Positions 13,901 to 62,580 of a stretch of 64,000 nucleotides of DNA are shown piece after piece. The translations under genes and the position numbers were made by a program. This stretch comes from Schizochytrium sp. TIO01 (lineage: Eukaryota; Protista; Bigyra: Labyrinthulomycetes), in contig SMSO01000032.1 in assembly GCA_004764695.1 (NCBI GenBank), forward strand, positions 8,898,483-8,962,482, given 5' to 3'. The stretch's first letter is position 1. Each line of letters opens with the position of its first letter. Below the pieces are notes generated by a model. The model worked only from the letters and a program-made list of their open reading frames with translations. It made no database searches and was not told where the DNA came from.

Positions 13901-16900
13901 CTTCCTCAAAGCGTCAAGTTGTCATGTATGTTGACAACTTTTTGGACACCGTTTCCCGTAGAGTGAAGAACGCTAGCAAACGGAAAAAACGCGTGACGGT
14001 GGACAACGAAACCAGCTCAACGAATACTTCGCATATTTCGCTGGACTTGGAGGGGACAAAGGACTTCAACTCATCGAATAGGCACGTTCACTCAGCAGTT
14101 TATAGACCCGCAGGATGTGCAGAGGCAAGTCCTCATTGCGGTGGTTGTCATTTCTCGTCCGGCACAGAAAGGGAGACAGCCTATCAGCCTCTAGCCGCAA
14201 AAGTGGCTTCTAACCATAATCAGGAGACCAATGATCTAGCGTTTTTCAAGCGTCTTTTGCATCTTGCGCAGATTGGCCCCGCTCTCGCAAATGAACTCCA
14301 GCATGAACTCCATCGAGGCAGGGATCTTTTGCAGGGATATGCAGCCAAACGCGATGAGGTCTTTGCGCAAGGAGAACGCCTTTTTAATCTTATGAATATG
14401 GTGACGTATCTTCAGGCGCTCGAAAAAATGCATCAAGAGACGCAGAATCTTGCTCTTCGTCATATTGACGGACCCAAGTCTAGTCTTCAATCTTCTTCTC
14501 GGGGAGCTAAAGAGAATATTGAACACTCTCAAGCTGCAAGTATGATATTCACTCGCTTTATTGACTGTGTGAGTAAGCTTTGTCAGAGCATGAATGCAGT
14601 TGAACGCGTATCAAATTCACTATTGGAGGTTACAATGGATAGTCCCATGCAAACTATGCGATTTCAAGCAAGCTTGAAACGCTGTCAAGCGCACGGACGC
14701 GTCAGCGAGGCCTCGACTAATACTAGCAATTCAAACTTAGCTTCACGCACTGATGATATCAATGGTGGTAGCAAGGCTAGTGAAACCTTTTTGCCATCTG
14801 CAGTAGAAGTATCAAAAGGAGAACCAACAAAGCAGCTAGCAGGAGGGGCGAGTGTACTAAATGCCCTAGTTTCACGCGCAGCTTCAGCCGGGAAGTCTGC
14901 TCGAGAAGATATGGTGGTAGAGGAATCCTCACTTCGCTCAGCACTGGCAGCTCAGCAAGCTTTAGAGCTCTTCTCCCATGAGTTTCTTGCGCCCGTGAGC
15001 AGACTCGCAGAGGAAATTTGCGTAGCAGCAGCGGTGAACCCCTACGAGAATTTCGAATCTGATGCTACAAAGTCAATAACATGCGAGAAACAACACATCA
15101 ATACCAGGGACTTATTTACTGATAATACTCCTGGGGATGTTCGAGATGCTTCTGATGCTAAGAAAGCAGACGCTAATGAATCCCTTGCCGAAACTTGGGA
15201 TAGCTGGCGGGAAGATATTAATGATTGCTTACAAGGTGTTGTAGAAACTCACGAGCTTCGCACAATGATGTGGAAACAAGAGCAGTTTACAATGGGTAAA
15301 CCAGCATCTGAATTACATCACCAGGAAGCAAGGCGGATTCTGAAAACTGCAGCAGAGTTGTATCCTTCTCCAACCATTGCTCATGAGCTTCCATCCTCAC
15401 ATCGTGAGAAAATCATTACACTCTTGCAATCAGCGGCTGATACACTAGCTGTTGCATCACAAGTCAGTCAAATTCGAGCAGGTTCAGCGTCACCTGAAAC
15501 TGGTTGGAACGCTCGCTCTGCTGATGAACAGGTTCTTTCAAGTGTACGCACCTTATACAAAGACCAACTCTCACTTTTGGGTAAAACAGCAATTCTTGAT
15601 AGAGACATAGGTCATTATGTGCAAAAGAACTTCTCGAGTGAGGAAGATTTGGAACACATTGGAGAGCTTGTTGCTGCTACACAACAACGTCTAAGTGCAG
15701 CTCGTAGTGATTTTGCTGACTCCTCAAGAGCGCTCGGAAACCTCGAGCGATCTCTGCGCTGTAATTTGACTATGAGATGTCAATTCTTCACAGCAACTAT
15801 TGCTCAGCTTTTGATTTCACGGCTAGAGACAGTTGCGCGCGAGACTGCTGCGCATGCTAAACAGTATGAGTCATTATTAAAGGAGGTCGAAAGGGGCTCA
15901 TCAGAATCTGCAAAAGCTTCACAAGTGTCGAATACATCCACCTCTGCTGCTTCTTCAACGACTAATAAGCAAAATACCTTAGGTGGAGCACAAAAGTCAA
16001 GAAAGTCAAAAAGCAAGAAAAACAAGAAAAAGTCCGCATGCTCGAGTCAGACGTTGCGTGAAAAGGCTACTTCGCCAAGTCCTGAGGATGATAACTTGCA
16101 AGACTCAGCACCGGTTTCAGCCCCTGATACAAATGTTGATTTAAATGTCTTCTCAAATACACAGAGTACAAGGAGTGGCACATCTGTGAATGAGGTCCAA
16201 AGCATGAGAAAAGCCGAATCGATGTCCTCACTTGTCCTTGATTCTGTGCCAGAAGAACAAAACATAAAGGTTGAGTCTATGGAATCGCCGATGGACTCAA
16301 AGGAGGAGTTTTCTCTCCATGTTAAACCAGACCTTCCTGAAGCAGACGTCTATGTCTCGGAAGACTGGACCACCGTTGTTAAATCCCGTTCTAAAAAAGT
16401 ACAACAGAAAGAGCAACAGGAGCATTACCGTCAACAGCAGTCATCACAACATAAGAAGAGTAATAAGACTATGCATGGAGGAACAGCCGATTCTGGGGTA
16501 TCTTCCCCAAGTTCGATTTTGGTCCCATCCCCTACTCACACAAATGAGCAAAAGAAGAGGAAAAATAAAAAGGGGAAACCTGTGAATACGACAACAAACT
16601 CCAAGAACAACAAATTGGGAAACATTTCAAATACAACTCCTGCTGCCTCTGCTGCCTCTGCTGCTACCGTTACCCCTGCTACTACTAGTACTACTACTAC
16701 TGCTGATGGAGTTGTCGCTCGTGACGATAAGAGCGCCACCAATCGATACGATAAACCATCTCAATCACAAATGAGGAGTTCAACTCAGGAGACCACCGTT
16801 CCCCTTCCTAGCTCTGAGTCAAATGATAAGCTCAGAGACGTTTCGACTTCCAAGACTTCACGAAATCAAGGCGAAGAAATCACAATGAATGAGTTAGGCA

Positions 16901-18570
16901 ATGTCGTTTCTTCTATTGCAATCAACAACAAGTCTTTGACTTCACCGATCAATGGTTATGACGAAGCCTCCGAGCCTGCCACTTCATCTTTGACTGACTC
17001 AAAACAGTCGAAACAAAAGCACCCCACATCGGTCGCTTCGAACGAGTTTAACAACGGAACTAGGTCGAAAGTTGAGGATTCGGTTGTTGGAGGGGTTCCA
17101 ACAACCGCTTTGAATTCTGCTGAGGTTTCCTCACTACATCAGTCTAATATCTCTACTGAGAAAATTGATCATGAAAAATCAGACTCTACCTCAAAGACAA
17201 AGAAAACCAAGAAGAGCAGGAAGAAGAGACTTCCAACTTCCTCAGCGGAAGCAAATGTTCCTGTCATCGATCCCATGGACCAAGCTGACGTTGGTGACGA
17301 GGCAGTTGCTATAGATAATGTTGCATCTGTCTTAACGCCTGCGCCTGCTGACGTTGCATCACTTTGTGATGACGAAAATGACAAATGTGGTAAGGAAAAT
17401 GTCGAAACTATTTCTCGAAATCCGGAGGATAGTGACCACGTATTAGCAGTTAGTGCCCGGTCATCTTCGGCCCTTCCATCAGTGTCTAATATTTGCCGGC
17501 CGTTCTTGCAGGGACACTGCAAAGAGGGTGGCAAGTGCCTATTACGGCACGTGACTCCTCTTGAACTTCATGATGAAATGGTTGCTTGGGAATCGAGCTC
17601 AAAGACCGCAGATCAGAAGCCAGGTACCGATAAGAACGGGAGATATCATTCTGAAAACTTAGATAAAATGCAAGAGTTACCACCCGAGTTTCACCCTGCA
17701 ACGAATATTTCACCTCAAGTCCCAACTGCCCCACCTTCTGTAACTTATGGTATTCCATATAACCAAATGCCGATGCCTCAAATGTTTCCTGGTATGCCAG
17801 TGCCTCCACAATTCCCGGGTGGATGGCAAAATGCACAGCCATACTACTACCATTCTGGGATGCTTCACCCCCCAACAGCGCCTCATCATATGATGCAAAT
17901 GCATAGTTCTCCTTATCCGTCAAGGTTTGCAGAAAATAATTCATCAGAGGCACCCTCAACCCTCAACGAGTCGCATTTAGCAGAGAATGGTGCCGAGGAC
18001 GTGCCATCTGTGGGCTTGGTGCCTGAAAACAGCGCTGACGAAGAGGATGACGGTCAGAGTGGACATCTTTCAGATTATGATGAAGGCGCTACACCGCATA
18101 CGGTGGAGTCTTCTGCATCTGGTGATAATAATGATAACGTGGATGATCCAAAAGATGGTGATAATAAGTTTCGTGAAAAAGAAGAACTTTCCGCAAACTT
18201 CCAGGGATTTGGTTATGGTCCCGGCCCTGAGGCGTTCCCACACGCCCATGGACAACCTGCTCCACTCCACCCGATGTATTTTCCTTTGACGTACCCCATG
18301 CCAGGTCCTTATTTCCCTCAAGGAATGCAACCCCCGCACCTACCCCTGCACCCACACTCGCATATGATGATGCATATGGGTCTACCTCACCCAGGAATGG
18401 CTATGCAACACATACCACCACCAGCAGCAGCAGCAGCAGCAGCACCCCTACCCCCTCCCCCAATGCATCTTATGCAACAACAAATGCCTCAACAAATGCA
18501 ACAGCCGATAAAGCAACATGTGCAAGACGAAGCAGGGAGCTCGTCAACAAATGACCAGAGTGATGTCTGA
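10987..18570 (+). CDS. 2527-aa intronless protein: N-terminal TPRs, helical middle, low-complexity region, CCCH zinc finger, Pro/Gln/Met-rich tail
   Basis: Single 7.6-kb ORF with a GCCGCCATGG start context. TPR-like FFAYRAKALLLMGRLDDALSDAAQALKRDPNLALANLCKGCAL. C-x7-C-x5-C-x3-H finger CRPFLQGHCKEGGKCLLRH at about 17494-17550. Confidence 0.88.
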   Translation: MASGAMAAVLSDLQQFARALENGAFEDGVAIMTALITQDPRRAKFFAYRAKALLLMGRLDDALSDAAQALKRDPNLALANLCKGCALVGLGTATGNTAMLRSGAAAMQTARKEDPRVEHQAVFKAFEATLQDHMARGNQQARTSVAQNDFGVRIPAAATTAGASTLMSQSTASSTISTVTMAAQAVLEKRGEDGKEPQAMLKIKNRGSAKMFAQGSLEKDEKEQREAEFAWKAAMQMVRPKALEEEMLWLTSDVLLASAALTRGSMRSVDGAREFEVTALIRDRRSLEDGRRMVAMLMGSVKEPALKANASLGFSKLQFFVHKATATRMLQACLRSFLAVLREDALVESYEDYVANAQQTVFTLLSQGDTALSLKQGSCTKLALRIIASCLASSVPKEAVILLGLRLQLQHRYRHYVSSSPSVSLLPDFSSATPHRSFAKNNEKTAQPSPANVEGDSPKWDSLLQEIDMSLEPYIDLEAMRACDEVIDFHEHWTGAPPWLGGVDFTSDKERIHFENLTKQAQATLAASMSEDQDYNPSADATASDDLEAAFAYTKVIDVETGYGPWSLVPWHRATSAQSELPPEPRHDVSRGSTSLSDLTSESKKSDEDFSESELANAKLVERLAEAWSQLTNSNERDRLRSFSMEDLQQASQALRGEIPGRPLDCEELLREMLPDSSSVLRTTAPYNIFTLAYETPSTAKQETLERLIGELREVFSRVNFGKLNASTLSAQQLGRPLRLPSPSGTHPTPLLETDAGKTWKRVLNEFAEAENRLRVASKAITSSAAKTTVAPASSSSLQNQSTLSNLEQLSTLPSLDERLIPCSAFPPGLCVLVDLAKGYPLYGYEPYCGGEMLEEEAYFVMRPRHDSSSSSNPSSASSAEIPSSLAFAEGWLVSKRCASACFSERNLIPVYLGAVPIRCECGLYGVEGCSLDLAPAGHSTSSWLPELKLKSSSTSVPNSAMAPSSSAISNASSKRQVVMYVDNFLDTVSRRVKNASKRKKRVTVDNETSSTNTSHISLDLEGTKDFNSSNRHVHSAVYRPAGCAEASPHCGGCHFSSGTERETAYQPLAAKVASNHNQETNDLAFFKRLLHLAQIGPALANELQHELHRGRDLLQGYAAKRDEVFAQGERLFNLMNMVTYLQALEKMHQETQNLALRHIDGPKSSLQSSSRGAKENIEHSQAASMIFTRFIDCVSKLCQSMNAVERVSNSLLEVTMDSPMQTMRFQASLKRCQAHGRVSEASTNTSNSNLASRTDDINGGSKASETFLPSAVEVSKGEPTKQLAGGASVLNALVSRAASAGKSAREDMVVEESSLRSALAAQQALELFSHEFLAPVSRLAEEICVAAAVNPYENFESDATKSITCEKQHINTRDLFTDNTPGDVRDASDAKKADANESLAETWDSWREDINDCLQGVVETHELRTMMWKQEQFTMGKPASELHHQEARRILKTAAELYPSPTIAHELPSSHREKIITLLQSAADTLAVASQVSQIRAGSASPETGWNARSADEQVLSSVRTLYKDQLSLLGKTAILDRDIGHYVQKNFSSEEDLEHIGELVAATQQRLSAARSDFADSSRALGNLERSLRCNLTMRCQFFTATIAQLLISRLETVARETAAHAKQYESLLKEVERGSSESAKASQVSNTSTSAASSTTNKQNTLGGAQKSRKSKSKKNKKKSACSSQTLREKATSPSPEDDNLQDSAPVSAPDTNVDLNVFSNTQSTRSGTSVNEVQSMRKAESMSSLVLDSVPEEQNIKVESMESPMDSKEEFSLHVKPDLPEADVYVSEDWTTVVKSRSKKVQQKEQQEHYRQQQSSQHKKSNKTMHGGTADSGVSSPSSILVPSPTHTNEQKKRKNKKGKPVNTTTNSKNNKLGNISNTTPAASAASAATVTPATTSTTTTADGVVARDDKSATNRYDKPSQSQMRSSTQETTVPLPSSESNDKLRDVSTSKTSRNQGEEITMNELGNVVSSIAINNKSLTSPINGYDEASEPATSSLTDSKQSKQKHPTSVASNEFNNGTRSKVEDSVVGGVPTTALNSAEVSSLHQSNISTEKIDHEKSDSTSKTKKTKKSRKKRLPTSSAEANVPVIDPMDQADVGDEAVAIDNVASVLTPAPADVASLCDDENDKCGKENVETISRNPEDSDHVLAVSARSSSALPSVSNICRPFLQGHCKEGGKCLLRHVTPLELHDEMVAWESSSKTADQKPGTDKNGRYHSENLDKMQELPPEFHPATNISPQVPTAPPSVTYGIPYNQMPMPQMFPGMPVPPQFPGGWQNAQPYYYHSGMLHPPTAPHHMMQMHSSPYPSRFAENNSSEAPSTLNESHLAENGAEDVPSVGLVPENSADEEDDGQSGHLSDYDEGATPHTVESSASGDNNDNVDDPKDGDNKFREKEELSANFQGFGYGPGPEAFPHAHGQPAPLHPMYFPLTYPMPGPYFPQGMQPPHLPLHPHSHMMMHMGLPHPGMAMQHIPPPAAAAAAAPLPPPPMHLMQQQMPQQMQQPIKQHVQDEAGSSSTNDQSDV

Positions 18571-23053: not shown

Positions 23054-25015
23054 ATGCGTGTGGCCACTCCTGAGATTGCGCTCCATGTGGACGACCACGG
23101 AAAGAACGGCCCAGTGTATGGCGTTGATGTTCACCCAAAACTGCGCGTGATGGTCACTGGAGGAAGCGATAACGAGATCAAGTTTTGGACCTTTGGAGAC
23201 GCAGATCTTGAGAGTGAGAGCCCTTTTACCTTCATTTGCGGTTTTCAGGCCCACCACAAGAGCGTCAACGCAGCTCGATTTTCACCTGATGGCTCGATGC
23301 TCGCAACATGCAGCGATGACGGCACGCTGTGCATCTTCAAACCAGAGCATAAAAGTAAGGATAATAGTGCCGATACAAACTCGACTTGCATACTTGGCTG
23401 GGACGAAATTCGTGACGAGAGGGATGTGAAGCGTAAATTCTTGCGTGGCCATACCAGCGATGTCATGGACCTCGCATGGGCCAGTGACTCGCGTATGTTA
23501 GTTTCTGGGTCTGTGGATGGTAGCGTCATCGTTTGGGATGCAGTAGAATGCAAAGTTGTGCAATCGCACCATGAGCACGGCCACTTCGTGCAGGGTGTGG
23601 CATGGGATCCCTTCCGACACCATTTTGCATCGTGCAGTGCAGATCGTACTGTAAAGGTCTTTAAGCAACGAGTCACATCTGGAAAGACAAAATCGAAAAG
23701 CAGCCAGAAATCTGGCGCATCAGCAGATGGAACTACTGGTGCTAATTGTGCTGTTGAGCTACCGAAGTTCTCCGTTGCGCACGAGTTGACACACCGCCAG
23801 TATCCAGATAAGTCTCGCAATTCTGCGCAGAGCGACGAGGCAGAGGAAGATGCGTTGCAGGATGTAAGCTCAACAATGCACCGGCGCCAGATATTCCAGC
23901 ATGATACAGTACCAACAATGGTGCGCAGGCTGTCGTGGTCTCCAGATGGCTCACTGTTGATAACGCCAACAGGTCAGATTCGACACCGCGAGAACACCAC
24001 ATACTGTTACTTACGAGGTGCTTGGCAATCGCCGGCTCTTCACTTTCCAGGGACTGGCTCTGCTTCAGTAGGTGTGCGCTTCTCACCAGTACTATATGAA
24101 TTGCTCCCAGGCGCAAAGCCGTGGCTCAATGTGCCCTACCGTATGGTTTTTGCCATCATTACTTTGGACAGTGTTTTTGTTTATGATACTCAACACCTTT
24201 ACGCAATCGCTGCAGCCGAGAACCTTCACTTTGCGGAGCTCACAGATATTGCTTGGGGTGACAATGGGCAAGCTCTCATTGTCTCTTCTCGTGACGGTTA
24301 TTGCTCGCTAGTGAGTATGGAAGACGGTGAGATTGGTACACCTCTTCCGCAGAGTAAGATCCCGGCTGTGGTGAACGGAGATGTCCGCCTACCCGTGCTC
24401 ATCAAGCCTGAGGATAGGAACCCAGCCAAAACCAATATTAGCACGCCACAAAGGAAGAAATCTGTAGCTTCGCCCCTACGTGTAGAAAGTAAAGAGGTTA
24501 AGGAACCCATTAGTTCAGAGGATTCTGCTTCAGTTGTCGAAGCATCGCCCCAAACATCGCCTGTGAGACCTTCTCAAGACGCTAAAAAGGATGATTCCAG
24601 AATTCAAAATGAAGCTAGTGAGTCTACAAAGAAGCGACGTATCACCCCCACAAATATTCAGACCTTCTTCAAGGCTGCAAGTGGTGGTAGCAAATTTGAA
24701 CCCGATGAAAGCGAAACGAAATCGTCTATACAAGAGGACAAAAATGATAAACCTCAGGCAGCAGCACAAGAGAGTCCAGCTGTAGAGTCTGCTGATGATG
24801 CTGCAACGACAAAGACACTTCAGCGACGCCGCATTACACCTGTGCAAGTGCAGCCGTATTCACCAGCGACCTCAGAGGGTGTCAAATCTGAATCCGAAGA
24901 GACTCCCAAGCAGAGCAAAAAGAAAATTGAGTCGGTTTTACAAGATCAGGAGCAGCTAGGACAAAATACACAGAAAAAGCGCCGCATTGCCCCTACCATT
25001 GTAGAGGTCCTCTAA
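23054..25015 (+). CDS. CHAF1B: Chromatin assembly factor 1 subunit B (p60/Cac2), WD40
   Basis: MRVATPEIALH N-terminus, HFVQGVAWDP, RRLSWSPDGSLLITPTG, PYRMVFAI, NLHFAELTDIAW and SSRDGYCS; C-terminal RRITP B-domain-like motifs. Confidence 0.92.
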   Translation: MRVATPEIALHVDDHGKNGPVYGVDVHPKLRVMVTGGSDNEIKFWTFGDADLESESPFTFICGFQAHHKSVNAARFSPDGSMLATCSDDGTLCIFKPEHKSKDNSADTNSTCILGWDEIRDERDVKRKFLRGHTSDVMDLAWASDSRMLVSGSVDGSVIVWDAVECKVVQSHHEHGHFVQGVAWDPFRHHFASCSADRTVKVFKQRVTSGKTKSKSSQKSGASADGTTGANCAVELPKFSVAHELTHRQYPDKSRNSAQSDEAEEDALQDVSSTMHRRQIFQHDTVPTMVRRLSWSPDGSLLITPTGQIRHRENTTYCYLRGAWQSPALHFPGTGSASVGVRFSPVLYELLPGAKPWLNVPYRMVFAIITLDSVFVYDTQHLYAIAAAENLHFAELTDIAWGDNGQALIVSSRDGYCSLVSMEDGEIGTPLPQSKIPAVVNGDVRLPVLIKPEDRNPAKTNISTPQRKKSVASPLRVESKEVKEPISSEDSASVVEASPQTSPVRPSQDAKKDDSRIQNEASESTKKRRITPTNIQTFFKAASGGSKFEPDESETKSSIQEDKNDKPQAAAQESPAVESADDAATTKTLQRRRITPVQVQPYSPATSEGVKSESEETPKQSKKKIESVLQDQEQLGQNTQKKRRIAPTIVEVL

Positions 25016-25431: not shown

Positions 25432-26875
25432 TTACGGCTGAGCATGAATTACAATGGGGTCATGAGTCGTGGTATTGCTAAGTGGTTGGGTTTGCTCACT
25501 CTGCTGGATCTGTTCAGGAGGTTGCCAAAGGCGTATAACTCCGGGCTCGTTGGGTGAATTAGGAGAAAGTTCTCCAGAGACAACAATAGGGAGCGTTGGG
25601 TGCGAATCAACCGCCACGACCGGCCCTTGGTGCCCTGCAAGTCTAAGTGAGACACGCTTCGTCTGCAAATCCCAGAGATAAACATGACCATCCTCCGAGC
25701 CACTCATGATCGCTGCAGCACCTTGATGCACGGCAAAACCAGCTTGCACACAATACCGTTCATGTAAGTGGCCTCTGTACCTCTTGAGAACCTTTTCCTG
25801 AGCATAATTCCAGAGTTGAAGGGTACCACCAAAAGTTCCAATCAAAACAAACTTTCCGTTCGGTGAAAACGTAGCGCTTGATACAGGCGAATTTTGATTT
25901 TGCAGAATGGTGCGAATGCAATGTCCTGTTTTACAATCCCAAATACGTACAAGTCCATCAAAACTTCCAGAGACTACCAATGAGGCATCGCGATTAAAAT
26001 TAACGGACGTAATCGGGTCCATGTGACCAGGAATTGTTAAAAGGCAGCGGCCGTCCTGTACACTCCAAATACGGATAGTACAATCGAAGGAGCCCGAAAC
26101 GATGAGATCGCCATGCGGGCTATAATCTACAGCGAAAACGATGTTTCGATGGCCATGAAAGGTTCGAACCTCTGTGCCAGAAGTTACATCCCAAAGTTTA
26201 AGGGTCATATCGTCGCTTGCTGAGCAAAGGTATCGCGAGTCAGGAGACCATGAGATAGTAGAAATTCCACCTTCATGACCACACATTGTACGTCTATGTG
26301 TACCCTCGACTGGGTCCCAAAGCATAACTTTACCATCGGTGGCTATCACCTCCAAAATAATCCCATTCCCAATTCGTGAGGTTAGTTTTCCACAATCTTC
26401 AAAGTTACTGTCATGCTCAATTCATATGCTAGTAGCAGAGAAAAAACAAATCGCTCAATCAACATAAAAGCAGGGAAAATAAAAAACCGATCAAACCCTA
26501 GGTGCTAGCCTAATAAGCGCAACATTCGCTGTTGTATCCTCTTTATATGACTTGCCTGGGGGCTGAAAGAATACAACGACATAAGAAACTGGTCGCTGTT
26601 TTTGCAAGAAGCAAGTGCTTCTGGATCAAGAGGTTGGTTTACACGAAGCGCAGGGGTTTCTCTTTTCTGCGCTTTTACTCCAGTAAAGCAGTACCTAGTA
26701 GTACTACTGTTTCCTAGAAGTACTACACTTTGTTTTTTTCTTAGGACTTACATGCCGTTGCAAGGAGCTTGCCATCGGGCCCGAACTTGACACATGAGAC
26801 GCTACCTTCATGGCCCTGGAGAACATGACTCATACCCAGGCGCAGGCGCGGCATGCGCTTTACGTCCTTGCCCAT
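25432..26875 (-). CDS. WDR5-like WD40 protein, diverged paralog B (2 exons: 26875-26752, 26342-25432)
   Basis: Exon 1 MGKDVKR...GHEGSVSCVKFGPDGKLLATA ends at a GTAAGT donor (26751). The AG acceptor at 26344-26343 restores ATAS-TDGKVMLWD in frame. WDR5-type motifs SASDD, SGSFD, GHMDPITSVNFNRD and SGSEDG. Confidence 0.85.
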
Positions 26876-27333: not shown

Positions 27334-28815
27334 TCATGGTTCAGACCTTTCCTTTGCATTGTCGTCGCCGTCATCATCGGCTTTTTGATCACATTCAATG
27401 TCGTTCTCAGAGTTTGGTTTAGAATTTACCTTGGGATAGTTTTGTGTAGACTCGGACGGAGTCTGATCGTATTCCTTCTGTTTTGATGGGTTCTGACTAG
27501 GCTTTTCGTTTGATGAGCGCTTATGCTTCAAAGACTTCAATTGCATTGCGGATTTTTTGGACAGAGCTGATCTGTTAGAACTGGACTCTGATGTTTTACT
27601 GTCTACAGGGGGGGCGCATACACTGATAGACGCCTCCTCGGGACCATCCTGACCAGCTTGGTGTCTCCAAACACGCACAATAGGGCGTGCCGTACGGCCA
27701 TCAGGAACTTCGCCAGATGCAAGAAGGTCTTGAGTTGGATGCGCATCAACAGCGAGGACAACACCAACATGGCCTAGGAGTCGCTGAGCAACCTTGCGCG
27801 TTTGTACATCCCACACGTAAATTTTGTGATCTTCCGACCCAGAGATCACCCAGTGCCCTGATGTGACAGCAAAACTAGAAAGCATACAATAGCGCTCATT
27901 AATGTGACCCTTGTAGGTTTTAGCGCATTTCCCTTGTGAATAGTTCCATAAACGCAATGTAGAGTCAAGTGTGCCTGCAAGAATAAATTTTCCATTTGGA
28001 GAAAAGGTTGCAAATGATACGGCTGGATTGGTATCTCCAATGAGGGTTTTTAAACATTGGCCACTGGATGGGTCCCAGATGCGGCAGAGACCATCATACG
28101 AACTAGATACCACCATGGTGCCCTCACGGTTAAAGTTTGTAGATGTCACCGGGTCCGAGTGTGCTGGGATTGTCCGCACGCAAGTTCCTTGGCGTACATC
28201 CCATAGTCTGACCGTGGAGTCAAAGGATCCTGTATTTTCGTGAAACACAATCAACGTGATAAACAACAATTTTCGCTTGCATCTGTGAGTACTTCTGACT
28301 TCTTCTTCTGTATTTTAAACCTTTGCAAAATCTGAAATTTATAAAACACGCAAGCAACAACCTTGTACGGTTAACGCATTTTACTTACCTGTGACAAGTA
28401 CATTCGCCTGTGGGCTAAAGTCAACGCTAAAAACATACTCGCGGTGGCCCTCCATTGTTCGCAAGCATTTTCCAGTTTCTACATCCCATAGACGCGAAGT
28501 GGTATCATCTGAAGCCGTACACAGAAATCTCGAATCTGCAGACCAACACACTCCAGATATACCTTGTTTGTGGCCCCGGATGCGCCTGTGGAACTTGCCT
28601 GATGACGCATCCCATACGATGACAGTTTTATCTGCACTTGCTGTGGCAAGCATCTTGCCCGAAGGCGAAAACTTAACGCCAGATACGCCTGCATCATGGC
28701 CTTCAAGCTTTAACCATGGCACATAGTTCGGTTCTTCGCTCACGAAGGTCTTGTTCTCCCGTGACTCCGCAGCCTGGGAAGGTCTACGATCTGACAAAGC
28801 TGACAATGAGGTCAT
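27334..28815 (-). CDS. WDR5: WDR5-like WD40 protein, paralog A (2 exons: 28815-28389, 28229-27334)
   Basis: GTAAGT donor at 28388 and AG acceptor at 28231-28230 join LVTG-SFD. Near-canonical WDR5 motifs PAHSDPVTSTNFNREG, SSSYDGLCRIWD, GQCLKTL, FSPNGKFILAGTLD and SGSEDHKIYVWD. Confidence 0.88.
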
Positions 28816-36016: not shown

Positions 36017-37874
36017 TTACTAATAGACATGCTAGTGTACAAAAACAAAAAAACTGCTATTGTTGTGGTGAATAAATATTTCACAACAGAATCAAAGCAG
36101 TTTCCTGAACTAGCACATTCGGCCATGCAGTCAATAGCTCAAGTTACTTGTTAGGGCTTAGTGCGCAGCATAATATTTTGACAGGGATTCTTGCATTGAT
36201 CACTGAGGTAAACAGATTGTTTATTTTAAGGTGGGAAAAGCCCACGTTGATGAGGACCTGTTTAATTTTCACGATGAAAGGGGAATACCTGATTTGAAAT
36301 AGTTCATATGCAGGTAAGGTTTGCGCTAAACCTTTCTTCAATATTACCGGGTTCAATCTTTCAGATAGAATATTAAAAATAAGGTACCCCTTTATTGAAA
36401 TGAAGCAAGCTTCACAAACGCCACTGAAAGCAAAGAAGCAGTTTTACATTTGGTGACTGGACGAAGGTTAGTTTTAAAACACGTTATTTCTTTTTAATTT
36501 TTTTAAATGAACAAAAAAAAAAAAACAATTTAAACAGATATATATATATATATAATTTGAAAAAACTTATATACGTACATGATTTTTTAGCAGGTTGATG
36601 CCATAAATATAGAAACAGATTCAAAGGTCTTTTCAGACTCATTGGACACGTATGTATGTAAAGTTAGTTGTGAGTCCGTCAGACCCCACTGTTAGTCATG
36701 TTACATTATCAACAGAATGCATGTGCATCGACCACTTAGCACGCTTTCACAACTCCTAGTAGGCGGAGTGTTATACTAACTTAAAAGCGTAGACTGTGAG
36801 GCGAACGCTTCTTACAAACGAGACGATAGTAAAAGACTTGCAGATGTACTACCTGCGCCAGGTCCTCGTGCTATAATAATACCGTCCAGGTCGGCCGAGG
36901 CAGCAAGTTATGACGGTTTTAGTCAAAGGAAGAAAATTCGTATCTAATATGAAGCCTTGAGCGATTCTGTTGTCTCCCAAGAAGGTAAGATTGGGGATAA
37001 CCATTTGTGAGGTGCGTTTTACTTTTAGGTTGATTGTTGATTCGAGTACCTGCTGCAACCGACACAAGGCTTGTCGATGTGCATGCAAGCTTCGCACATC
37101 AAGTGTTAGAGCAGAAGCCCCATCGCTCTCATTGATCGAGTCACAAGCCGAGCTTCGAGGGACATAATAAGAAGCATTCATACATGTTTGTCTGGGCTTC
37201 CTTAAGCATTGAGCTTTAATTTAACGATCTGCTAATACCACTGACAGGTTCTGAACCTGCTGATTAGTCTCTTTTTACATACTTTACTCTTGCCATCGAC
37301 CTACGAATCGAAGTGGTTCTATTCTGATCATTATTCCCTCGTAGGCAAAATCTCAAACTTTGCAGGGCAATCTTGACGAAAAGTTACAATTGTAAACAGT
37401 CTCGCCATGGTACAAGAGGGGTCGGGGTCTCCTTTCCGGTCCTAATGCAACATGGACTATACACCCACATCCTTGCACCGGGGCTGTAATGAACGGCTGT
37501 CCTGACTTGAGCTTTTGTCCGAGATCAAAGCGTGTAGCGCATTATCTCCGGTCGAGAGCTGCCAAAAGACAATAGAAAGATATGATTACTTAATTAATGA
37601 TAGTACATCGCGATTGAGAGCGACATTTCCAACTTATGTTCTATAAGCTCCATAAGTTCCCAAGGTTCAAATCGTTGGTTACGCACCACATCTTTCCCTA
37701 GCGAACTTCTAGTATTGTCCATAGCTCTTATCAATAATGGAAAATACATGGAATGGCAAAATCCCAAACCAGCGCAACAGGCCTAAACCAAAAGCGATTA
37801 TTGGAGCAGGCCAGACAAGAGCGCGGTGATAAAGACGGGCATCTCAAGTTTGCAGTGCTCGAATTTACCGGACG

Positions 37875-38882
37875 ATGTCGGAGCTTACATACGAGCAGAA
37901 GCGGTTAGCCCGGATTGAGGAAAACGAGCGCATGCTCTCAGACCTTGGGCTCAACCTCGGTGTAGAAAACTCTGACGCCAAGACCAAACGTGAGTCTCTA
38001 CGCTCCAAAACATCCCCTACTACACGCTCTGGTGTGAAACGTCAGCGAACGGGTCCCCGGCGTGGTGTTGTTGCCTCTGCCCCTGCTGGCCGCCCAGCTC
38101 GGTCACTACGGCGTCAAGTGCCCAAACTTCGGAAATCACCAAGATTACATGGCAATGTTGCTAGTGGAACGGGCCCTGGAAATGCTGATGCTGCTGTTAG
38201 TGAAGCTAGCGATGATGGAAGTAGCATGATGCCTTCTGAGGAAGACGTAAATGTGGATAACGAGATCGAATTCGAGAATGAGGCAGCAGCAGAGCTTGCT
38301 GAGAAATGCAAAATGCTCATGCAGGCAGAGCCCGACGGCGGCAAGAGAGACCGTCGTAGAAGATTGTTTCTGGTTCCTACAGGGAAACGTGGAGTGAACG
38401 ATCATACGCTTGAAGAACCTGTGGCAGAGGTGGATAATATGTACCTATGGGGGTTCTGTGAAGGACTGTTTTCACGCATTTTTGTCAATATTCGCCCGGG
38501 AGATATCTTTCTCATGACAACAGCAGGAGAAGGCGCATTCAATAAAATTGCGCGAGTATGCGAGACTCGAGTAGTGAGCAAGTTTGATGCAGACAGGTTT
38601 TGGAAGCGTATGAGCTTTTCCATGGGAGGCACAAGCAAGAACAATGTTGGCTTTCCCCTACTTACACCAGTTGACAAACCCATTGAGATCGATTGGGACA
38701 AGCAAGAAACTCTGCGAAGCTTTGGTTACACAGACCATTTGCAAGCTTCACGCTGGATTAAACCAGAGAAAATGAATACTGTTCGGGGGAGTAAAATTTT
38801 TGCAGACTGTCTTCAAGAACTTGGACTTGATCCCTTTCTCACGGACGAGGAACTCAAGCTCGCGGAAATATGCCCTAAGTGA
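37875..38882 (+). CDS. Nuclear protein with WDR76/Cmr1/CDCA7-type N-terminal helix and C-terminal EVE/PUA-like domain
   Basis: N-terminus LTYEQKRLARIEENERMLSDLGL, LRKSPRL motif, acidic linker. C-terminal domain LFLVPTG..HTLEEPV..LWG..IRPGDIFLM..ADRFW..FGY..LQA. The CDS itself is secure; the domain naming is by eye. Confidence 0.8.
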   Translation: MSELTYEQKRLARIEENERMLSDLGLNLGVENSDAKTKRESLRSKTSPTTRSGVKRQRTGPRRGVVASAPAGRPARSLRRQVPKLRKSPRLHGNVASGTGPGNADAAVSEASDDGSSMMPSEEDVNVDNEIEFENEAAAELAEKCKMLMQAEPDGGKRDRRRRLFLVPTGKRGVNDHTLEEPVAEVDNMYLWGFCEGLFSRIFVNIRPGDIFLMTTAGEGAFNKIARVCETRVVSKFDADRFWKRMSFSMGGTSKNNVGFPLLTPVDKPIEIDWDKQETLRSFGYTDHLQASRWIKPEKMNTVRGSKIFADCLQELGLDPFLTDEELKLAEICPK

Positions 38883-40653
38883 AGCGTAAAACCTTGGCAC
38901 GAATAATGTTGCGCATATTTCAAATAGAACAGCTGGCCAGAGGCTAGGTTGCAAATAATCTCATGCATCTCTGCTTTTAATTTTACCGAGTACACATGCG
39001 TAAAAAATGATACTAGTCTGTTGCATAGGTTTTGCAGAGCCGACCTTAAATGCCAACTCTTGCATCATCTTGCAGCATAGTAGTTCTAGCAATTGAACAA
39101 GGATTAACCCATGCCTAAAACTCTGCTCAGTGTTTTTACCTTTGGAAGAACTTAATAGTGGTCAAAGCTTCACCCTGCAAGTGTTGCTAAAGCTCGCATA
39201 GCCCTGTATTTCGCCTAGCTATATACAAGAAACCCTCCCTCGAGTCATCCTCTCGTCATGTTTCGACTCCAATAAAGACGCGTCCTTCACATCAATATTA
39301 CCTTGATACTGTTATTTTATGCAATAAACTAGATTACAATGTCAACCAGCCTTAGCCTGCTCATCAAAACTCTAAAATGCTGCCGCAGCTTGAAATATTA
39401 ATATTTAAGGCCCTAGAATCTAAGCTTGTTTGTTGTTCTTGCAAGAGGTGTGCACGTTACTTACCTCCTACCTAGGATCTTTTGGAATGTGGGAAATCTA
39501 ATACTAAGCCAGTCTCCCCCCAAAAGATTCGGACGCTCTAAATTAGACCTTTTATCAAGGTGTAAAAAAACCCTCAAACAAGGATACTAGACCGTGAGAA
39601 AAGCAAAAGTCAAACTTATGGGGCTCCTTCCGCTCTTCTTTTCGATGTGTAAAGTGCCGATACTAAACCATACTTGAATGAACATTATGCATGAACTAGC
39701 GGTAGGCAAGTCATCCATCAGGGATTTTTTCCTTTTTCCTTCTCTACGGCTGCTATGAGTATTTCTGAATCACAATTAAAGAAGAATGTATTACGACTTG
39801 AGAATTGGAATATCAGCGCTGCTTCGTTCGTTTCTCTTTTGTACTAGCCTAACTACTATGTTCCGAATCCAAGTCCCCAATGGTCGTTCTCTGCAACTAA
39901 GTGGTAGCTCTGTAGCAGCACCACTGTCATCCACATTATCATCAGCAACAGCAGCAGCAGCAGCAGTAGCAGTAGCAGCAGTTTTTAAAAGGGTTGCGCA
40001 ACCTTGTTCGCGTAGTGTTCTTCTACCAGTTCTATCTAAGAATGGAGTAGTAGTCAAAATTATCATGGTTGATTGAAGAGCAACCCTGAATACATGGTGC
40101 TTGGCCGGGGATTTCTCGTTGCAGTCGCTTCAATTGAGAATAGAATAGGCTTTCAAGTTGGCGTTCTAGATGAAATGAGCCAAAAGCTGCATTCTCCATG
40201 ATGATGGTGCCGATGTTATCTGGCTGTCATTGAGGTCTGTCTAGTGATATTTGCACTCTTCAACTTGTGCACGCTGAGAACAAGTGCGCTACGAGATTGG
40301 CGCGTTCTACCTGAAATGCCCCGTCTCCCTCCTGGTTGTCTTTACAAGGAGGTAATAAGATCTCCTTGAGTGTGTTGTTTCTGCAGTCGAGCAGCAACAA
40401 GCTGTTGGTCGAATCAGAGTCAACCATAATTCCAGTTCGCGAAAGCAAGCAAACTCGATAAATTCGATGACAAATTTGCAGGGAAGGCGAGGACTAGAAA
40501 TCATATAACATTAGTTAGCTGCGAAGAACTTGAGGAAGCACAAATAGATCTCATTGTTGAGATTCATTGCGCAAGATTGAATAACTCTGAAAGCAAACCC
40601 GCAACAGCAAATCGATTGACGAGCAAGCAATCGGTGGGTGTTAGTTGAGTAGG

Positions 40654-54903: not shown

Positions 54904-57417
54904 ATGTCGGCAGCATCTCCTGCCCGAGCCTCAACACCGCTGGGGTCCATGTCTACAACAGGCTCAGAGGTATTTGCCGACGGCAAGAGCAAATCAGAAC
55001 GTATTCAAGAACTTGTACACCAAATGAAAATGGGCAACATCACCAAGAGCGAGCTGTTCACTCAACTATCATTGCTGCAAAGGACATCATCTACAGGAAC
55101 TAAGAATCGTGGAGCTCCAGATGACGCCAGCCATGGTGTATCGGTGGTGTCTGAAGAAGAAGAGCATGAATCTGGTAGTGAAGTTCAGAGTAGCGTTGCG
55201 GAAAGCCCTTATGATTTCATACTTCACCGGTCAGGTGCTGAGGGTCGCGGCTCAACACCGGAGCGACGCGCCCAAATTCTCCAGCGTTTGTTCGAGGAGA
55301 AACGCCGGCAGCGCCAGAAAGCGGCAACGCCATCAGTAGGAACTTCTGCATCTGTAGCCTCTGGAAGTAGTCACATGCGACCTGATACTCCTTCAACTTT
55401 GGAGAGCGCTGATGTACATCATGGTAACGTGGCTGCGTACTCGCCAAGAAGCGCGCGGCCTTCATCAGCCACCTCGTGGGTTCCTTGGGAAGGCGCAGAT
55501 GATGGCAATAATATTCATCATTCGCATACGACCCAGGATGATGCACACCAGGTACTTGAACGCATGCGGCGCCAGCACGAGCATCACCAGGGCGGAAGTC
55601 AGTCCGCCGGTGGCGACGGGCAAAGACCACGACCTTCGTCAGCGCCACGACCGGTAGGCAGAAGACCTGATCTTTCACAGCGTGGAAGTGCAAGCTATTG
55701 GTACGAAACTCGTAAACGCAGGATGCAGCAGGACTTATTGGAAAAGCAACTTGAAGAGTGCACATTTCGACCCAAGATCAGAGACCTGCCCTCGGAATAT
55801 GGTACTGGAAGACACCCTCGCGTGCGAGGTAACTTTCAAGAACGTGTTGATACTTGGAACCAGAGAAAACGTGAAGAGACTGAGCGAAAACGGCGCGAGA
55901 AACAAGCTTCGGAACTCGATGGATGCACGTTTCAACCACAAATCAACCGCAGCAGGAGTCGAAGTCGCGGTCGGCCAATGACCCCAGGACGCAACAGCGA
56001 TGCAGGATCTTCTATCGGCTCGCCAATTTCGGCTCGACGTGCTGATGAAGATGTATATGGCGATGAAGATGGTCTTCGAGAAACTATGAGTGAGGCTGGC
56101 GCGTCTCGGCATGGCAGGTCAAATCCCTATGAACGTCTTTACCGTCAGAACAACGCAGAGAAAATCGCTGCAATGCAAGCCAAGGCACGTGCTGATGAAG
56201 AAGAACGCATGCGCCAAGAGTGCACTTTTAAACCAAAGCTTTCTGATTCTGTACAGTTCCCTGGGCGCTCACGGTACATGAAGGGCACTGCGTCTCAACC
56301 AGCCAGTGCTCGTGGAACTCGCGGTGTGGGAGAGGTGATGTCTGAGAGTGGAGTATCAACCCCTTCGTCACGAGCACGTCGCAAGTCTGCGTGGGATGAA
56401 CAGTGTACATTTACCCCGCAAACAAACCCTGTACACCCCAAGATGGAGGCTGCTCAAGTTTATCTTTCAAACGATATCTTCACTCGCTTGTCTCAGCCTC
56501 GCGAAGCACTGTACCAACGTCGCGAAGCAGATTCAGGAAGTGAAGTGAGCCCTGGCAGCGGGGATGATGACCGGGTTATGGATATGGAGACCTTTATGGC
56601 AAGTCTTGGTGATGCGCAAGGGGATGCTAACTCTTCAAAGGGGGGCAAACAAAGGCCGGGTTCTGCACCTCGTCAGCGACCATCAACAGCTGAAGGAGCA
56701 AAGGCATTGACGGCGGAGGAGCGCAGGGAGCGTCGTAAGTCGTTTGAGGCTTTTCTGGCCCGCCAGAGTCACAGTACTGTGCGCAAACAGCAAAAGATTG
56801 CACAGGTAGCGCAACGCACCAACCCTTCTCATAAGCCAGAGCTTTGCGCGAAGTCACTCTCCATGGCAAATCAACGCGCGAAGGGAGATTTTCTGCAGCG
56901 GGTTGCAAAGGGTGCGATCCGGCGTGAGCATGAGGCTGTTCGCCGGAAGTCAAGTAGCCTCGACCCAGAGTGTACGTTTCATCCTAAAATCACGCGTGTT
57001 GGCCAGTCCCGGCCTGCGCGCACGACGCTGGAGATGAGTCGCGGCGATAGTCTTCGAAAGGAGACCAACGCTCGGCTCATGAAGTTGCGTGTGGAGCAGG
57101 AGGAGCTCCAAGATTTGACGTTCACACCTGAGTTCCAGGCACGCCACAAGGCTGCTGAGGGTCGCCTGAAGATCCTCTCCGAGCCAGACACTTATATTCG
57201 TCGCTTGCAGCACAAAGATACTTTACAGTCTCATAAACAAACCAAGGCTGCTCAGGATCAGGAAATGAAGGAGCTGGAGGAGTGTACATTTAAGCCCGAG
57301 ATTCATGATGCGCCAGCGTATGTGAAGCGGATTGTCCGCTCGCTGGCCCTCGCGAAACCTGCTCGAGAGGCTCAGGCTGCAGCTGAAAAGGAGCACGCCC
57401 GTCCCGAGTGGCGTTAG
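54904..57417 (+). CDS. CTFxP-repeat protein, probable microtubule/flagellum-associated
   Basis: 837-aa ORF with seven (C/L)TFxP repeats (ECTFRPKI, GCTFQPQI, ECTFKPKL, QCTFTPQT, ECTFHPKI, DLTFTPEF, ECTFKPEI) and RPxSAP motifs. Function is inferred. Confidence 0.8.
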   Translation: MSAASPARASTPLGSMSTTGSEVFADGKSKSERIQELVHQMKMGNITKSELFTQLSLLQRTSSTGTKNRGAPDDASHGVSVVSEEEEHESGSEVQSSVAESPYDFILHRSGAEGRGSTPERRAQILQRLFEEKRRQRQKAATPSVGTSASVASGSSHMRPDTPSTLESADVHHGNVAAYSPRSARPSSATSWVPWEGADDGNNIHHSHTTQDDAHQVLERMRRQHEHHQGGSQSAGGDGQRPRPSSAPRPVGRRPDLSQRGSASYWYETRKRRMQQDLLEKQLEECTFRPKIRDLPSEYGTGRHPRVRGNFQERVDTWNQRKREETERKRREKQASELDGCTFQPQINRSRSRSRGRPMTPGRNSDAGSSIGSPISARRADEDVYGDEDGLRETMSEAGASRHGRSNPYERLYRQNNAEKIAAMQAKARADEEERMRQECTFKPKLSDSVQFPGRSRYMKGTASQPASARGTRGVGEVMSESGVSTPSSRARRKSAWDEQCTFTPQTNPVHPKMEAAQVYLSNDIFTRLSQPREALYQRREADSGSEVSPGSGDDDRVMDMETFMASLGDAQGDANSSKGGKQRPGSAPRQRPSTAEGAKALTAEERRERRKSFEAFLARQSHSTVRKQQKIAQVAQRTNPSHKPELCAKSLSMANQRAKGDFLQRVAKGAIRREHEAVRRKSSSLDPECTFHPKITRVGQSRPARTTLEMSRGDSLRKETNARLMKLRVEQEELQDLTFTPEFQARHKAAEGRLKILSEPDTYIRRLQHKDTLQSHKQTKAAQDQEMKELEECTFKPEIHDAPAYVKRIVRSLALAKPAREAQAAAEKEHARPEWR

Positions 57418-58367: not shown

Positions 58368-59111
58368 TCACCCGCGGTGCCTGTAACGGTTGACGCGCTG
58401 TACCTTCATACCTCTGGCGAGCGAGAGGTCCTCTGGTGAGTGCATCTTGCCGAGCGCATCAAAGAAAGCGTAAACTACCGACGAGGTGGTTGTGCGTCCA
58501 ATCACCTTGGTCGTCGCGTTTTCGATGCCGACCACATCGCACAGACACTGAATAGTCGGGCTGGAGGTGAGACCGTTGTACGGCTTACAGGCACGCAAGA
58601 GAACACGCGTGTTGTTCTTCTTACCGACCACGTCGTAGAAGAGACCCTTGTCCTCGCTCAGCTCCACAGGCACCCAGTTCGTCAAAGCGTTGCGGTAGGC
58701 CTTATCAATGGCGGCGCGCACAGTGCGTCCCTTGCCGACCGCGAAGCCACCAGCGCCGTTGCCGTTGCCAGCGGCAACGAGGGCGCGGAAGGAGTTCACA
58801 CGGCCTCCCTTGGTGGTCTTGCGGGTGGAATCGACGGCAAGCACACGCGAGACGATCTGCATGCGAGGCTGCGGGGCCGGGGTGAAGCGGTTGCGCTTAG
58901 CAGGCTGACGGCGAGCGTTGTTTCCAGAGTCTGAGCTCACATCCGAGCTGCCCACGCCCTTGTTTGCGCGGAAAGGCTGCGCAACCTGACCAGGGGCAGG
59001 GGAAGAGGACGAGGACGAGAAGGCGCGCATGAAGGAGAACGAGGGAGACACCGGGGCAAGACCGGAGCATGCGGGGCGGAACACGCCGCGGGAAAGAGCG
59101 GCGGAGAGCAT
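58368..59111 (-). CDS. MRPS5: Mitochondrial ribosomal protein uS5m
   Basis: S5 motifs RKTTKGGRVNSFRALVAAGNGNGAGGFAVGKG and AIDKAYRNA; Ser/Arg-rich transit peptide MLSAALSRGVFRP; ATG in a GCCACCATG context. Confidence 0.9.
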   Translation of the reverse strand: MLSAALSRGVFRPACSGLAPVSPSFSFMRAFSSSSSSPAPGQVAQPFRANKGVGSSDVSSDSGNNARRQPAKRNRFTPAPQPRMQIVSRVLAVDSTRKTTKGGRVNSFRALVAAGNGNGAGGFAVGKGRTVRAAIDKAYRNALTNWVPVELSEDKGLFYDVVGKKNNTRVLLRACKPYNGLTSSPTIQCLCDVVGIENATTKVIGRTTTSSVVYAFFDALGKMHSPEDLSLARGMKVQRVNRYRHRG

Positions 59112-61989: not shown

Positions 61990-62580
61990 TGTCTCTACGA
62001 TGGCAGGGTGCTGACGACAATACCGTTCTACAGCTCCTCCATTACCAAGTCTACTGTCACGTTTGTGAGAATGGATCATTAGTAACTAATACCGTCACGT
62101 AGCTTACTTTTAAAATAAAAAGAAAGTTTTTCGAAGCCCCAGCGCTATCGCCGCTAATTCGCTTTTCAAGGAAGTTTGAAACTACAGCATGCACATGCCA
62201 GAGAGAGGTGACTTGCTTTCCGCGGAGACAGAGCTCCTTTCTAGAATCCTGACTTTGCTGTGAATTTCATTCAAGTTGTGACGTCCAGATTCTAAACGCC
62301 GCGACCAGCACCAGCATCGCCAGTGCTAAAATACCAAGTTTCCCAGTTTTCGCTTTTATTTCTCATGGAATTGCAAAGTTTAGAGATTTTTTACATAGTT
62401 CCTCCTAGTGCCTACCTACGTAGCTAGAGTACATAGTCAGATAGTAGAGTTTTGGAGTTTTTCTCGTATGACTTAAGTTTATACCCCAAATGAAGTTCCT
62501 AAAAGATTTTATGGAGTTGCCTCTGATGTGAGTAACCTGAGTTCGATTGCTCCATCGATAATAGCTACTTGCAATTATAA

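Follow-up and report, generated by a model that had tools for sequence, protein, structure and literature searches.

A restriction-type base reader behind a short N-terminal helix in Schizochytrium: a candidate reader of N6-methyladenine

RELATED READERS AND ADAPTORS

The movement of modified-base readers from prokaryotic restriction into eukaryotic chromatin proteins is a known pattern: as set out in PMC4738411, the RAMA, HARE-HTH, ASCH and SRA domains of restriction systems recur in eukaryotes fused to PHD, SET, chromo and Tudor domains, and the first three are proposed there as readers of N6-methyladenine (6mA). The protein family described here is an addition to that pattern. Its representative is encoded in a stretch of 64,000 nucleotides of Schizochytrium sp. 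TIO01 (contig SMSO01000032.1; ‘the window’) by a gene for a protein of 335 amino acids (aa) with a short N-terminal helix, a disordered linker and a C-terminal domain of the PUA superfamily. Unlike the four families above, it is unlisted in that account, and its nearest solved relative has a measured preference for 6mA. We are far more confident that the domain is a PUA-type base reader derived from restriction systems than we are of any single ligand or partner proposed for it below.

That relative is the N-terminal domain of McrB from Thermococcus gammatolerans (TgMcrB-N; 6p0f and 6p0g), which prefers DNA with 6mA, single- and double-stranded alike, over unmodified DNA or DNA with 5-methylcytosine (5mC), and which has little affinity for RNA (PMC7544203). 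Bell et al. call its branch YTH-like and note how difficult it is to separate from EVE (PMC7641849). The window domain resembles it in being its best structural match, in a profile link that runs through haloarchaeal McrB and HNH readers and in having aromatic residues at matching positions; it differs in its eukaryotic setting, the lack of a GTPase or nuclease, a shorter helix alpha-1, the added helix and disordered linker, and an identity of about 20%.

A different comparison concerns the N-terminal half. CDCA7, which adapts the remodeller HELLS to hemimethylated CpG, contacts HELLS through an N-terminal helix (PMC11343034) that spans residues 112-130, about 19 residues (PMC12885070). The window protein is like it in joining a short N-terminal helix, a disordered linker and a C-terminal DNA reader, and HELLS is present in Hondaea; it is unlike it in that its reader is a PUA fold, with no Pfam match to zf-4CXXC_R1, and in that its predicted ligand is 6mA rather than hemimethylated 5mC. 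WDR76/Cmr1 is likewise a reported partner of HELLS-family proteins, including in an organism whose DNA methylation does not depend on HELLS: in Neurospora, WDR76 co-purifies with the HELLS homologue MUS-30, a protein that guards against alkylation damage and without which DNA is still methylated (PMC4714748), and in human cells a weak co-purification of WDR76 with HELLS-family proteins is on record. Unlike WDR76, the window protein has no WD40 match in Pfam.

No earlier description of the family was found in the literature searched, outside which lay most subscription papers and supplements; it has no Pfam model, and it is unlisted in the available text of PMC7641849 as well. The gene is an open reading frame (ORF) as follows.

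37875..38882, + strand: ORF of 335 aa, no intron seen, from translation and from an orthologue in Hondaea fermentalgiana with 69% identity across the domain

FOLD AND KINSHIP OF THE C-TERMINAL DOMAIN

38361..38870, + strand: PUA-superfamily domain of the TgMcrB-N / prokaryotic YTH-like branch, aa 163-332, from the model and from structure and profile matches

The domain model has a mean pLDDT (predicted local distance difference test) of 88 and a pTM (predicted template modelling score) of 0.85, and aa 163-332 can confidently be modelled as a PUA-superfamily fold. Among 48,161 chains compared with VIA-align the best match was TgMcrB-N (6p0g; Z 11.4, root-mean-square deviation 2.8, 138 residues aligned, 22% identity), followed by PH1033 (Z 10.1), an ASCH domain (8.5), YTHDC1 (8.3) and VcaM4I (8.0), with THYN1 further down at 6.5; every one of the seven chains at Z ≥ 8 belongs to the PUA superfamily. 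Foldseek ranked MJECL36 first and TgMcrB-N second, with mainly YTH domains thereafter among 26 matches at E ≤ 0.001. A structure search of the ESM Atlas returned prokaryotic proteins in nine of ten rows (the remaining row has no taxon), with clusters carrying HNH, Mrr, NmeDI_C and AAA_5, and the feature search placed two stand-alone giant-virus clusters at the top (0.94). The best viral fold match was M1HWH6 (E 4e-7), from an accession series that we take to be that of a chlorovirus. The original prediction, made from the DNA letters, had proposed a PUA fold here, and Foldseek and VIA-align bear this out.

It had also called the domain EVE-like, EVE/PUA-fold domains being readers of 5mC or 5-hydroxymethylcytosine (5hmC). 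The 335-aa protein has no match to EVE (PF01878), and the best rows of its family reach 18.4 and 18.3 bits, under the gathering cut-off of 23 bits; the weak matches (E 0.002) are confined to two of 27 rows. EVE domains such as those of the EVE-HNH protein VcaM4I, THYN1 and PH1033 have the PUA-superfamily fold in common with the window protein, which itself lies below the Pfam cut-off, and VcaM4I and THYN1 are structurally more distant from it than TgMcrB-N. Eukaryotic YTH and DCD domains share the fold class and a Trp-lined pocket; unlike them, the family matches neither PF04146 (YTH) nor PF10539 (DCD) in any of its 27 rows at E ≤ 2, forms a separate lineage nearer to archaeal restriction readers and has chromatin-type fusions. 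An unnamed model, phrog_14240, matches four of the 27 rows (best E 1e-5). Searches of PDB sequences with the 335-aa protein, with alignments A1, A3 and A4 and with the helix alone gave nothing meaningful.

Where, then, does the family belong? A phmmer search over 1.84 billion representatives gave 42 proteins at E ≤ 0.001. Five of the 27 domain-bearing clusters looked up carry an organism, namely Hondaea, Cymbomonas (two) and Tetraselmis (two); the others are assumed to be eukaryotic, although a viral origin is possible for some that are short and stand alone. Among the members, P0056 matched an HNH endonuclease of a Halobacterium plasmid (E 8e-4); the window domain alone gave no plasmid match, and the link came via P0056. 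The reader of the Halobacterium HNH endonuclease scored 97.8% against the family profile and has the motif order given in the original prediction. The eukaryote-side family profile (A3) matched in five of 301 Halobacteriota genomes, two of the matches being McrB-like GTPases with the domain at the N-terminus and three being GNAT fusions reached through a short motif, and in none of 301 Actinomycetota or 301 Pseudomonadota genomes. With hhalign, this profile matched that of the haloarchaeal readers (A6) at 98.5% (E 1.8e-15), and the window domain by itself did so at 96.3% (E 2e-9). The haloarchaeal profile in turn matched TgMcrB-N (6p0f) at E 4.6e-7 and PH1033-type EVE proteins merely at E 0.1-0.3; it was found in two of 201 Actinomycetota and none of 201 Acidobacteriota genomes. 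The family's sequence link to TgMcrB is a transitive one, since A3 itself matched no PDB chain. In Pfam, 27 aligned rows of the haloarchaeal reader (L127-L161) gave no YTH match at E ≤ 1 and matched EVE at E 0.02 at best. Pattern scans of IMG/VR and GTDB, which need near-exact motifs and so exclude only close relatives, yielded no close relative.

Because sequence and structure agree, the domain is placed on the TgMcrB branch, and its nearest characterised relative, as judged by profiles and models, is TgMcrB-N. The EVE-like placement first proposed has to be corrected: the domain belongs with the TgMcrB / prokaryotic YTH-like branch, whose sole characterised member prefers 6mA, and not with the EVE readers of 5mC and 5hmC. 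That its closest relatives are readers of prokaryotic modification-dependent restriction systems, fused to HNH, McrB or Mrr, holds good, as does the motif order first given. A quick unrooted tree, from which fragments and near-duplicates were omitted, sets 30 eukaryote-side and 21 prokaryotic domains on opposite sides of one branch (SH-aLRT 99); no donor is named from it, because long branches meet there and an outgroup is absent. The proposal that a prokaryotic-type reader was grafted onto the helix stands as to kinship with archaeal readers and fails as to a recent graft, since the fusion is common to a family of divergent marine sequences.

Other members of the family carry chromatin domains: a PHD finger in P0059 (Cymbomonas; E 3.5e-7), a SET domain, so named by the source, beside two copies of the reader in P0077 (Cymbomonas) and weak Tudor- or chromo-like N-termini in P0012 (E 0.002-0.004) and P0078 (E 0.06). 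No fusion to a repair or RNA-binding domain was seen among the members scanned. Two Tetraselmis proteins (P0072 and P0074) join the reader to a segment that is chromo-like by eye and has no Pfam match. In P0082 and P0091 the reader is C-terminal and the N-terminus matches HNH weakly, under the cut-off (E 0.002-0.007); these two may represent a form that is viral or linked to a nuclease. On the archaeal side, TgMcrB-type readers are common in Halobacteria, on McrB, HNH and untyped partners: one haloarchaeal McrB-like reader has relatives in 46 of 151 Halobacteria genomes, and 30 haloarchaeal ORFs typed by motif comprised 12 with a McrB-like P-loop, five with an HNH zinc motif and 13 with neither.

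THE POCKET

The pocket candidates align with TgMcrB-N through the haloarchaeal profile.

38448..38450, + strand: W192, first pocket aromatic, aligned to TgMcrB W53; invariant as W in all 30 eukaryote-side and all 21 prokaryotic rows
38601..38603, + strand: W243, second pocket aromatic, matched to TgMcrB W115 by eye within a gapped stretch of the A6-6p0f alignment; W in 29 of 30 eukaryote-side and 19 of 21 prokaryotic rows
38652..38654, + strand: F260, third pocket aromatic, aligned to TgMcrB F121; F in 28 and W in one of 30 eukaryote-side rows, W in 18 of 21 prokaryotic rows
38397..38405, + strand: N175-D176-H177, candidate base-edge residues; N in 29, D in 24 and H in 19 of 30 eukaryote-side rows

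W53, W115 and F121 are presumably the aromatic cage of TgMcrB. In YTHDC1 it is Asn367 that reads adenine N1 (PMC7544203), with N19 at a like place in TgMcrB; in VcaM4I, a reader of 5mC and 5hmC, Glu15 is on cytosine N4 (PMC7897488). To judge by residues, the specificity of the window domain leans toward adenine, and its ligand is probably not a modified cytosine; the alignments, however, disagree over the segment N175-H177, which is modelled as a loop.

THE HELIX AND ITS LINKER

37884..37952, + strand: helix motif at the N-terminus, aa 4-26 (the helix itself aa 6-23), a candidate for binding a remodeller, from AlphaFold2 and a 15-row alignment
37953..38150, + strand: basic disordered linker, aa 27-92, with the RxSxRL motif (aa 86-91) at its end, from charge count and AlphaFold2
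38151..38327, + strand: acidic stretch and helix, aa 93-151, from charge count and AlphaFold2

Modelled at full length with AlphaFold2, the protein has an isolated helix at aa 6-23 (block pLDDT 77-89), disorder over aa 29-120 (pLDDT <50), a second helix at 122-151 and the folded domain from about aa 164. Helix residues Y6, E7, R10, I14, N17 and L24 are invariant in all 15 rows of the family alignment (A4). The linker has 19 K/R against three D/E over aa 27-92, a possible nuclear-localisation or DNA-contact segment, and is followed by 14 D/E against two K/R over aa 93-150.

Across the window's six frames the helix pattern is present a single time, against none in 200 residue shuffles; as the pattern was derived from the reader family itself, this shows no more than that chance does not produce it often. 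With RxSxR it is found in 12 of the 29 domain proteins tested and in five of five further partial members, so the fusion of helix and domain is a family trait; RxSxR follows the helix in all helix-bearing rows, and green-algal members are without the pattern. The same helix and RxSxRL also head a Myb protein (P0084) and two FYRC-like proteins (P0085 and P0086), which suggests a wider, unmodelled protist module.

The helix places its R, I, N and L much as the helices of CDCA7 and WDR76 do, and the searches did not link it to either. The identification of the helix with the CDCA7/WDR76 module, as first made, stays a conjecture: homology to either was not detected across several searches, which are weak for 20 residues, and the helix search reached solely members of the family and three other proteins. 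In the ESM Atlas, aa 1-92 gave no usable feature match, and a single plant B3 cluster had a template modelling score of 0.34, below the bar.

THE GENE AND ITS CHROMOSOMAL SETTING

The ORF is single and has zero internal stops. All ten motifs named when it was first noticed are found in the protein: the helix motif (aa 4-26), LRKSPRL (85-91), LFLVPTG (164), HTLEEPV (177), LWG (191), FVNIRPGDIFLM (203), ADRFW (239), FPLLTPVD (260), FGY (283) and LQA (289).

37763..39350, strand not assigned: extent of transcript-like contigs, in three of three presumed RNA runs, which stem from three studies; a weak hint

Contigs from all three of these runs, whose RNA nature is a guess (no run is registered as RNA), span from 37763-37772 to 39344-39350 with no joint, and that of a fourth run extends past both flanks, a weak hint of an unspliced transcript over the ORF. 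The ORF with its quoted motifs is confirmed by translation and the motif check, and an identical 335-aa protein is present in the transcriptome collection mmetsp. Its closest named homologue is that of the thraustochytrid Hondaea.

The window is an ordinary segment of eukaryotic chromosome: of the 16 other long ORFs scanned, 14 match Pfam at E ≤ 0.05, their products including a kinase, propellers of CAF1B/HIR1 and WDR5, RRP40, RFC1 and MIP-T3. Its observed/expected ratios of CpG and ApT are 0.86 and 0.91, and those tabulated for Aurantiochytrium limacinum are 0.86 and 0.89 (PMC12695648), a closeness that suits Aurantiochytrium or near kin without being proof. Recent horizontal acquisition of the gene was considered and rejected, because its G+C content at third codon positions (GC3, 0.445) and codon index (0.773) lie inside the neighbours' ranges (0.41-0.75 and 0.75-0.82), the family is broad and one homologue (L006) is in three pieces with candidate GT/AG ends. 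Pfam, PHROG and PADLOC assign the protein to no family, and NCBIfam gives just one weak, unrelated match. The predicted absence of a nuclease is borne out by the lack of any Pfam domain in the protein; nor was any feature of type IV restriction, nuclease or McrB GTPase, found fused or adjacent to it, the scanned neighbours being ordinary eukaryotic genes and the domain being without a PADLOC match.

WHAT MIGHT THE PROTEIN DO?

Hondaea is reported to have HELLS (GBG28394) and DNMT2 and to be without CDCA7, UHRF1 and DNMT1/3/5/6 (PMC10538959); the remodeller that was predicted as a partner is thus available in a related thraustochytrid, there without CDCA7. In A. limacinum the 6mA methyltransferase picture given in PMC12695648 is one of AMT1 present and METTL3/14/4 absent, with three peaks of 6mA, made by AMT1, shortly downstream of the start sites of active genes and strand correlations of 0.49 for 6mApT and -0.006 for 5mCG. 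The same tables, the supplements to which do not extend to Cymbomonas, Tetraselmis or Hondaea, list AMT1 in three of three labyrinthulomycetes, none of ten ochrophytes and oomycetes and eight of nine chlorophytes, and list METTL3/14 as absent in all three labyrinthulomycetes. 6mA is the one surveyed modification that a nuclear reader of the thraustochytrid lineage could use. Since A. limacinum marks active genes with 6mA and lacks symmetric 5mCG, an endogenous 6mA ligand is favoured over 5mC-based silencing of transposons, and the earlier suggestion that modified transposon DNA is silenced is disfavoured in its 5mC-marked version.

The reading tentatively preferred, as quite possible and short of probable, is that of an adaptor acting in the nucleus: its McrB-type PUA domain would bind endogenous 6mA, and its helix would recruit a remodeller, most likely HELLS. 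The domain would flip 6mA into the pocket of W192, W243 and F260, the helix (aa 4-26) would contact HELLS, the protein would sit in the nucleus, and HELLS would position or slide nucleosomes beside 6mA-marked linkers, in analogy to CDCA7 at hemimethylated CpG.

Several points weigh against this adaptor. HELLS/DDM1 is known chiefly from heterochromatin and repair, which sits uneasily with 6mA at active genes. Ciliates, Chlamydomonas and early fungi are the best-known 6mA organisms, and no named member of the family comes from them (five of the 27 clusters carry names). Among the 7,991 candidates scored with the helix profile there was neither a CDCA7 nor a WDR76 protein, and the helix may be a general module, since it is also on Myb and FYRC-like proteins. 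As to the ligand, the counterpart of TgMcrB N19 is N175 or H177 by alignment, with the acidic D176 between them and three alignments differing; the archaeal helix alpha-1, which bears on the register of the base edge, is a loop in the window domain model; PH1033, of unknown ligand, trails TgMcrB-N by just 1.3 Z units; PUA pockets switch ligand easily, since VcaM4I and TgMcrB have the same fold; and the charges of the domain balance (21 K/R, 21 D/E), which leaves no positive excess. The 6mA of A. limacinum is moreover low, at 0.18% of ApT, and marks active genes (PMC12695648).

Could the modified bases be those of invaders instead? A defence reader would recognise 6mA, 5mC or N4-methylcytosine (4mC) on giant-virus or endogenised viral DNA, which HELLS would package or silence. 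The work of the closest prokaryotic relatives in restriction, the giant-virus clusters that head the Atlas feature search, the viral fold match and the reported hosting of large DNA viruses by thraustochytrids would all suit it. It is nevertheless unlikely: the gene lies among eukaryotic housekeeping genes with no nuclease or defence neighbour, its homologue L001 adjoins GRASP55/65, a 6mA reader would bind host 6mA too, and silencing via host 5mC is itself improbable because A. limacinum is reported without symmetric 5mCG and Hondaea without DNMT1/3/5/6. The DNA bound might also be damaged rather than marked. A reader of lesions in the manner of WDR76/Cmr1, taking alkylated adenine or single strands and tying HELLS to the upkeep of the genome where 5mC is absent, would fit the association of MUS-30 with WDR76 and alkylation protection (PMC4714748) and the indifference of TgMcrB-N to strandedness (PMC7544203), but the lack of any repair fusion among the scanned members and the PHD, SET and Tudor-like fusions, which indicate chromatin marks rather than lesions, make it distinctly improbable.

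Two further readings keep the domain and alter its partner or its substrate. A modified-DNA reader whose helix is a general protein-binding module for something other than HELLS would account for the Myb and FYRC-like carriers, the undetected homology to the CDCA7 helix and the green-algal members without the pattern; against this, the modelled helix of 18 residues compares well with the CDCA7 helix of 19 residues (PMC12885070) and Hondaea is reported to retain HELLS without CDCA7 (PMC10538959), and we consider it a poor prospect. That the domain reads methylated adenosine in RNA, as do eukaryotic YTH or DCD proteins, is very unlikely. The mostly YTH Foldseek matches favour it, as does the prediction that prokaryotic YTH-like domains in CoCoNuT systems bind RNA (PMC11090510), yet Pfam YTH and DCD match no row of the family, no RNA-binding fusion was seen, TgMcrB-N has little affinity for RNA (PMC7544203) and METTL3/14 is absent from the three tabulated labyrinthulomycetes (PMC12695648).

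The preferred adaptor has a bolder extension, rather doubtful as a whole: thraustochytrids and other marine protists, having lost 5mC and CDCA7 and retained HELLS, would have rewired HELLS to 6mA. A restriction reader of archaeal type, which a giant virus may have brought in, would have been joined to a CDCA7-like helix and would now steer HELLS to 6mA linkers at active genes. If true, this would provide a dedicated reader of AMT1-type 6mA and put HELLS in the service of an activating mark. The finding of readers is held by a 2025 survey of eukaryotic 6mA to be key to understanding the mark (PMC12695648). The family offers a small, soluble candidate from a lineage with 6mA and without METTL3/14 or symmetric 5mCG, and a possible answer as to the partner of HELLS in species without CDCA7 or maintenance DNMTs.

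OTHER OBSERVATIONS

Two homologue loci (L002:4839-6284 and L003:2038-3531) each have a family-4 glycosyltransferase gene nearby. Within the window, adjoining ORFs at 25432-26325 (-) and 27334-28116 (-) each score against the WDR5 propeller, with 297 and 208 bits, as tandem duplicates or as exons of two copies, and adjoin the CAF1B/HIR1 gene at 23054-25015. ORFs of 837 aa (54904-57417, +) and 518 aa (60523-62079, -) have no Pfam match. A single ORF of 2527 aa at 10987-18570 (+) has a weak TPR as its sole Pfam match, and a Ribosomal S5-type ORF at 58368-59111 (-) has a GC content of 0.62 and a GC3 of 0.75, well over those of neighbouring genes.
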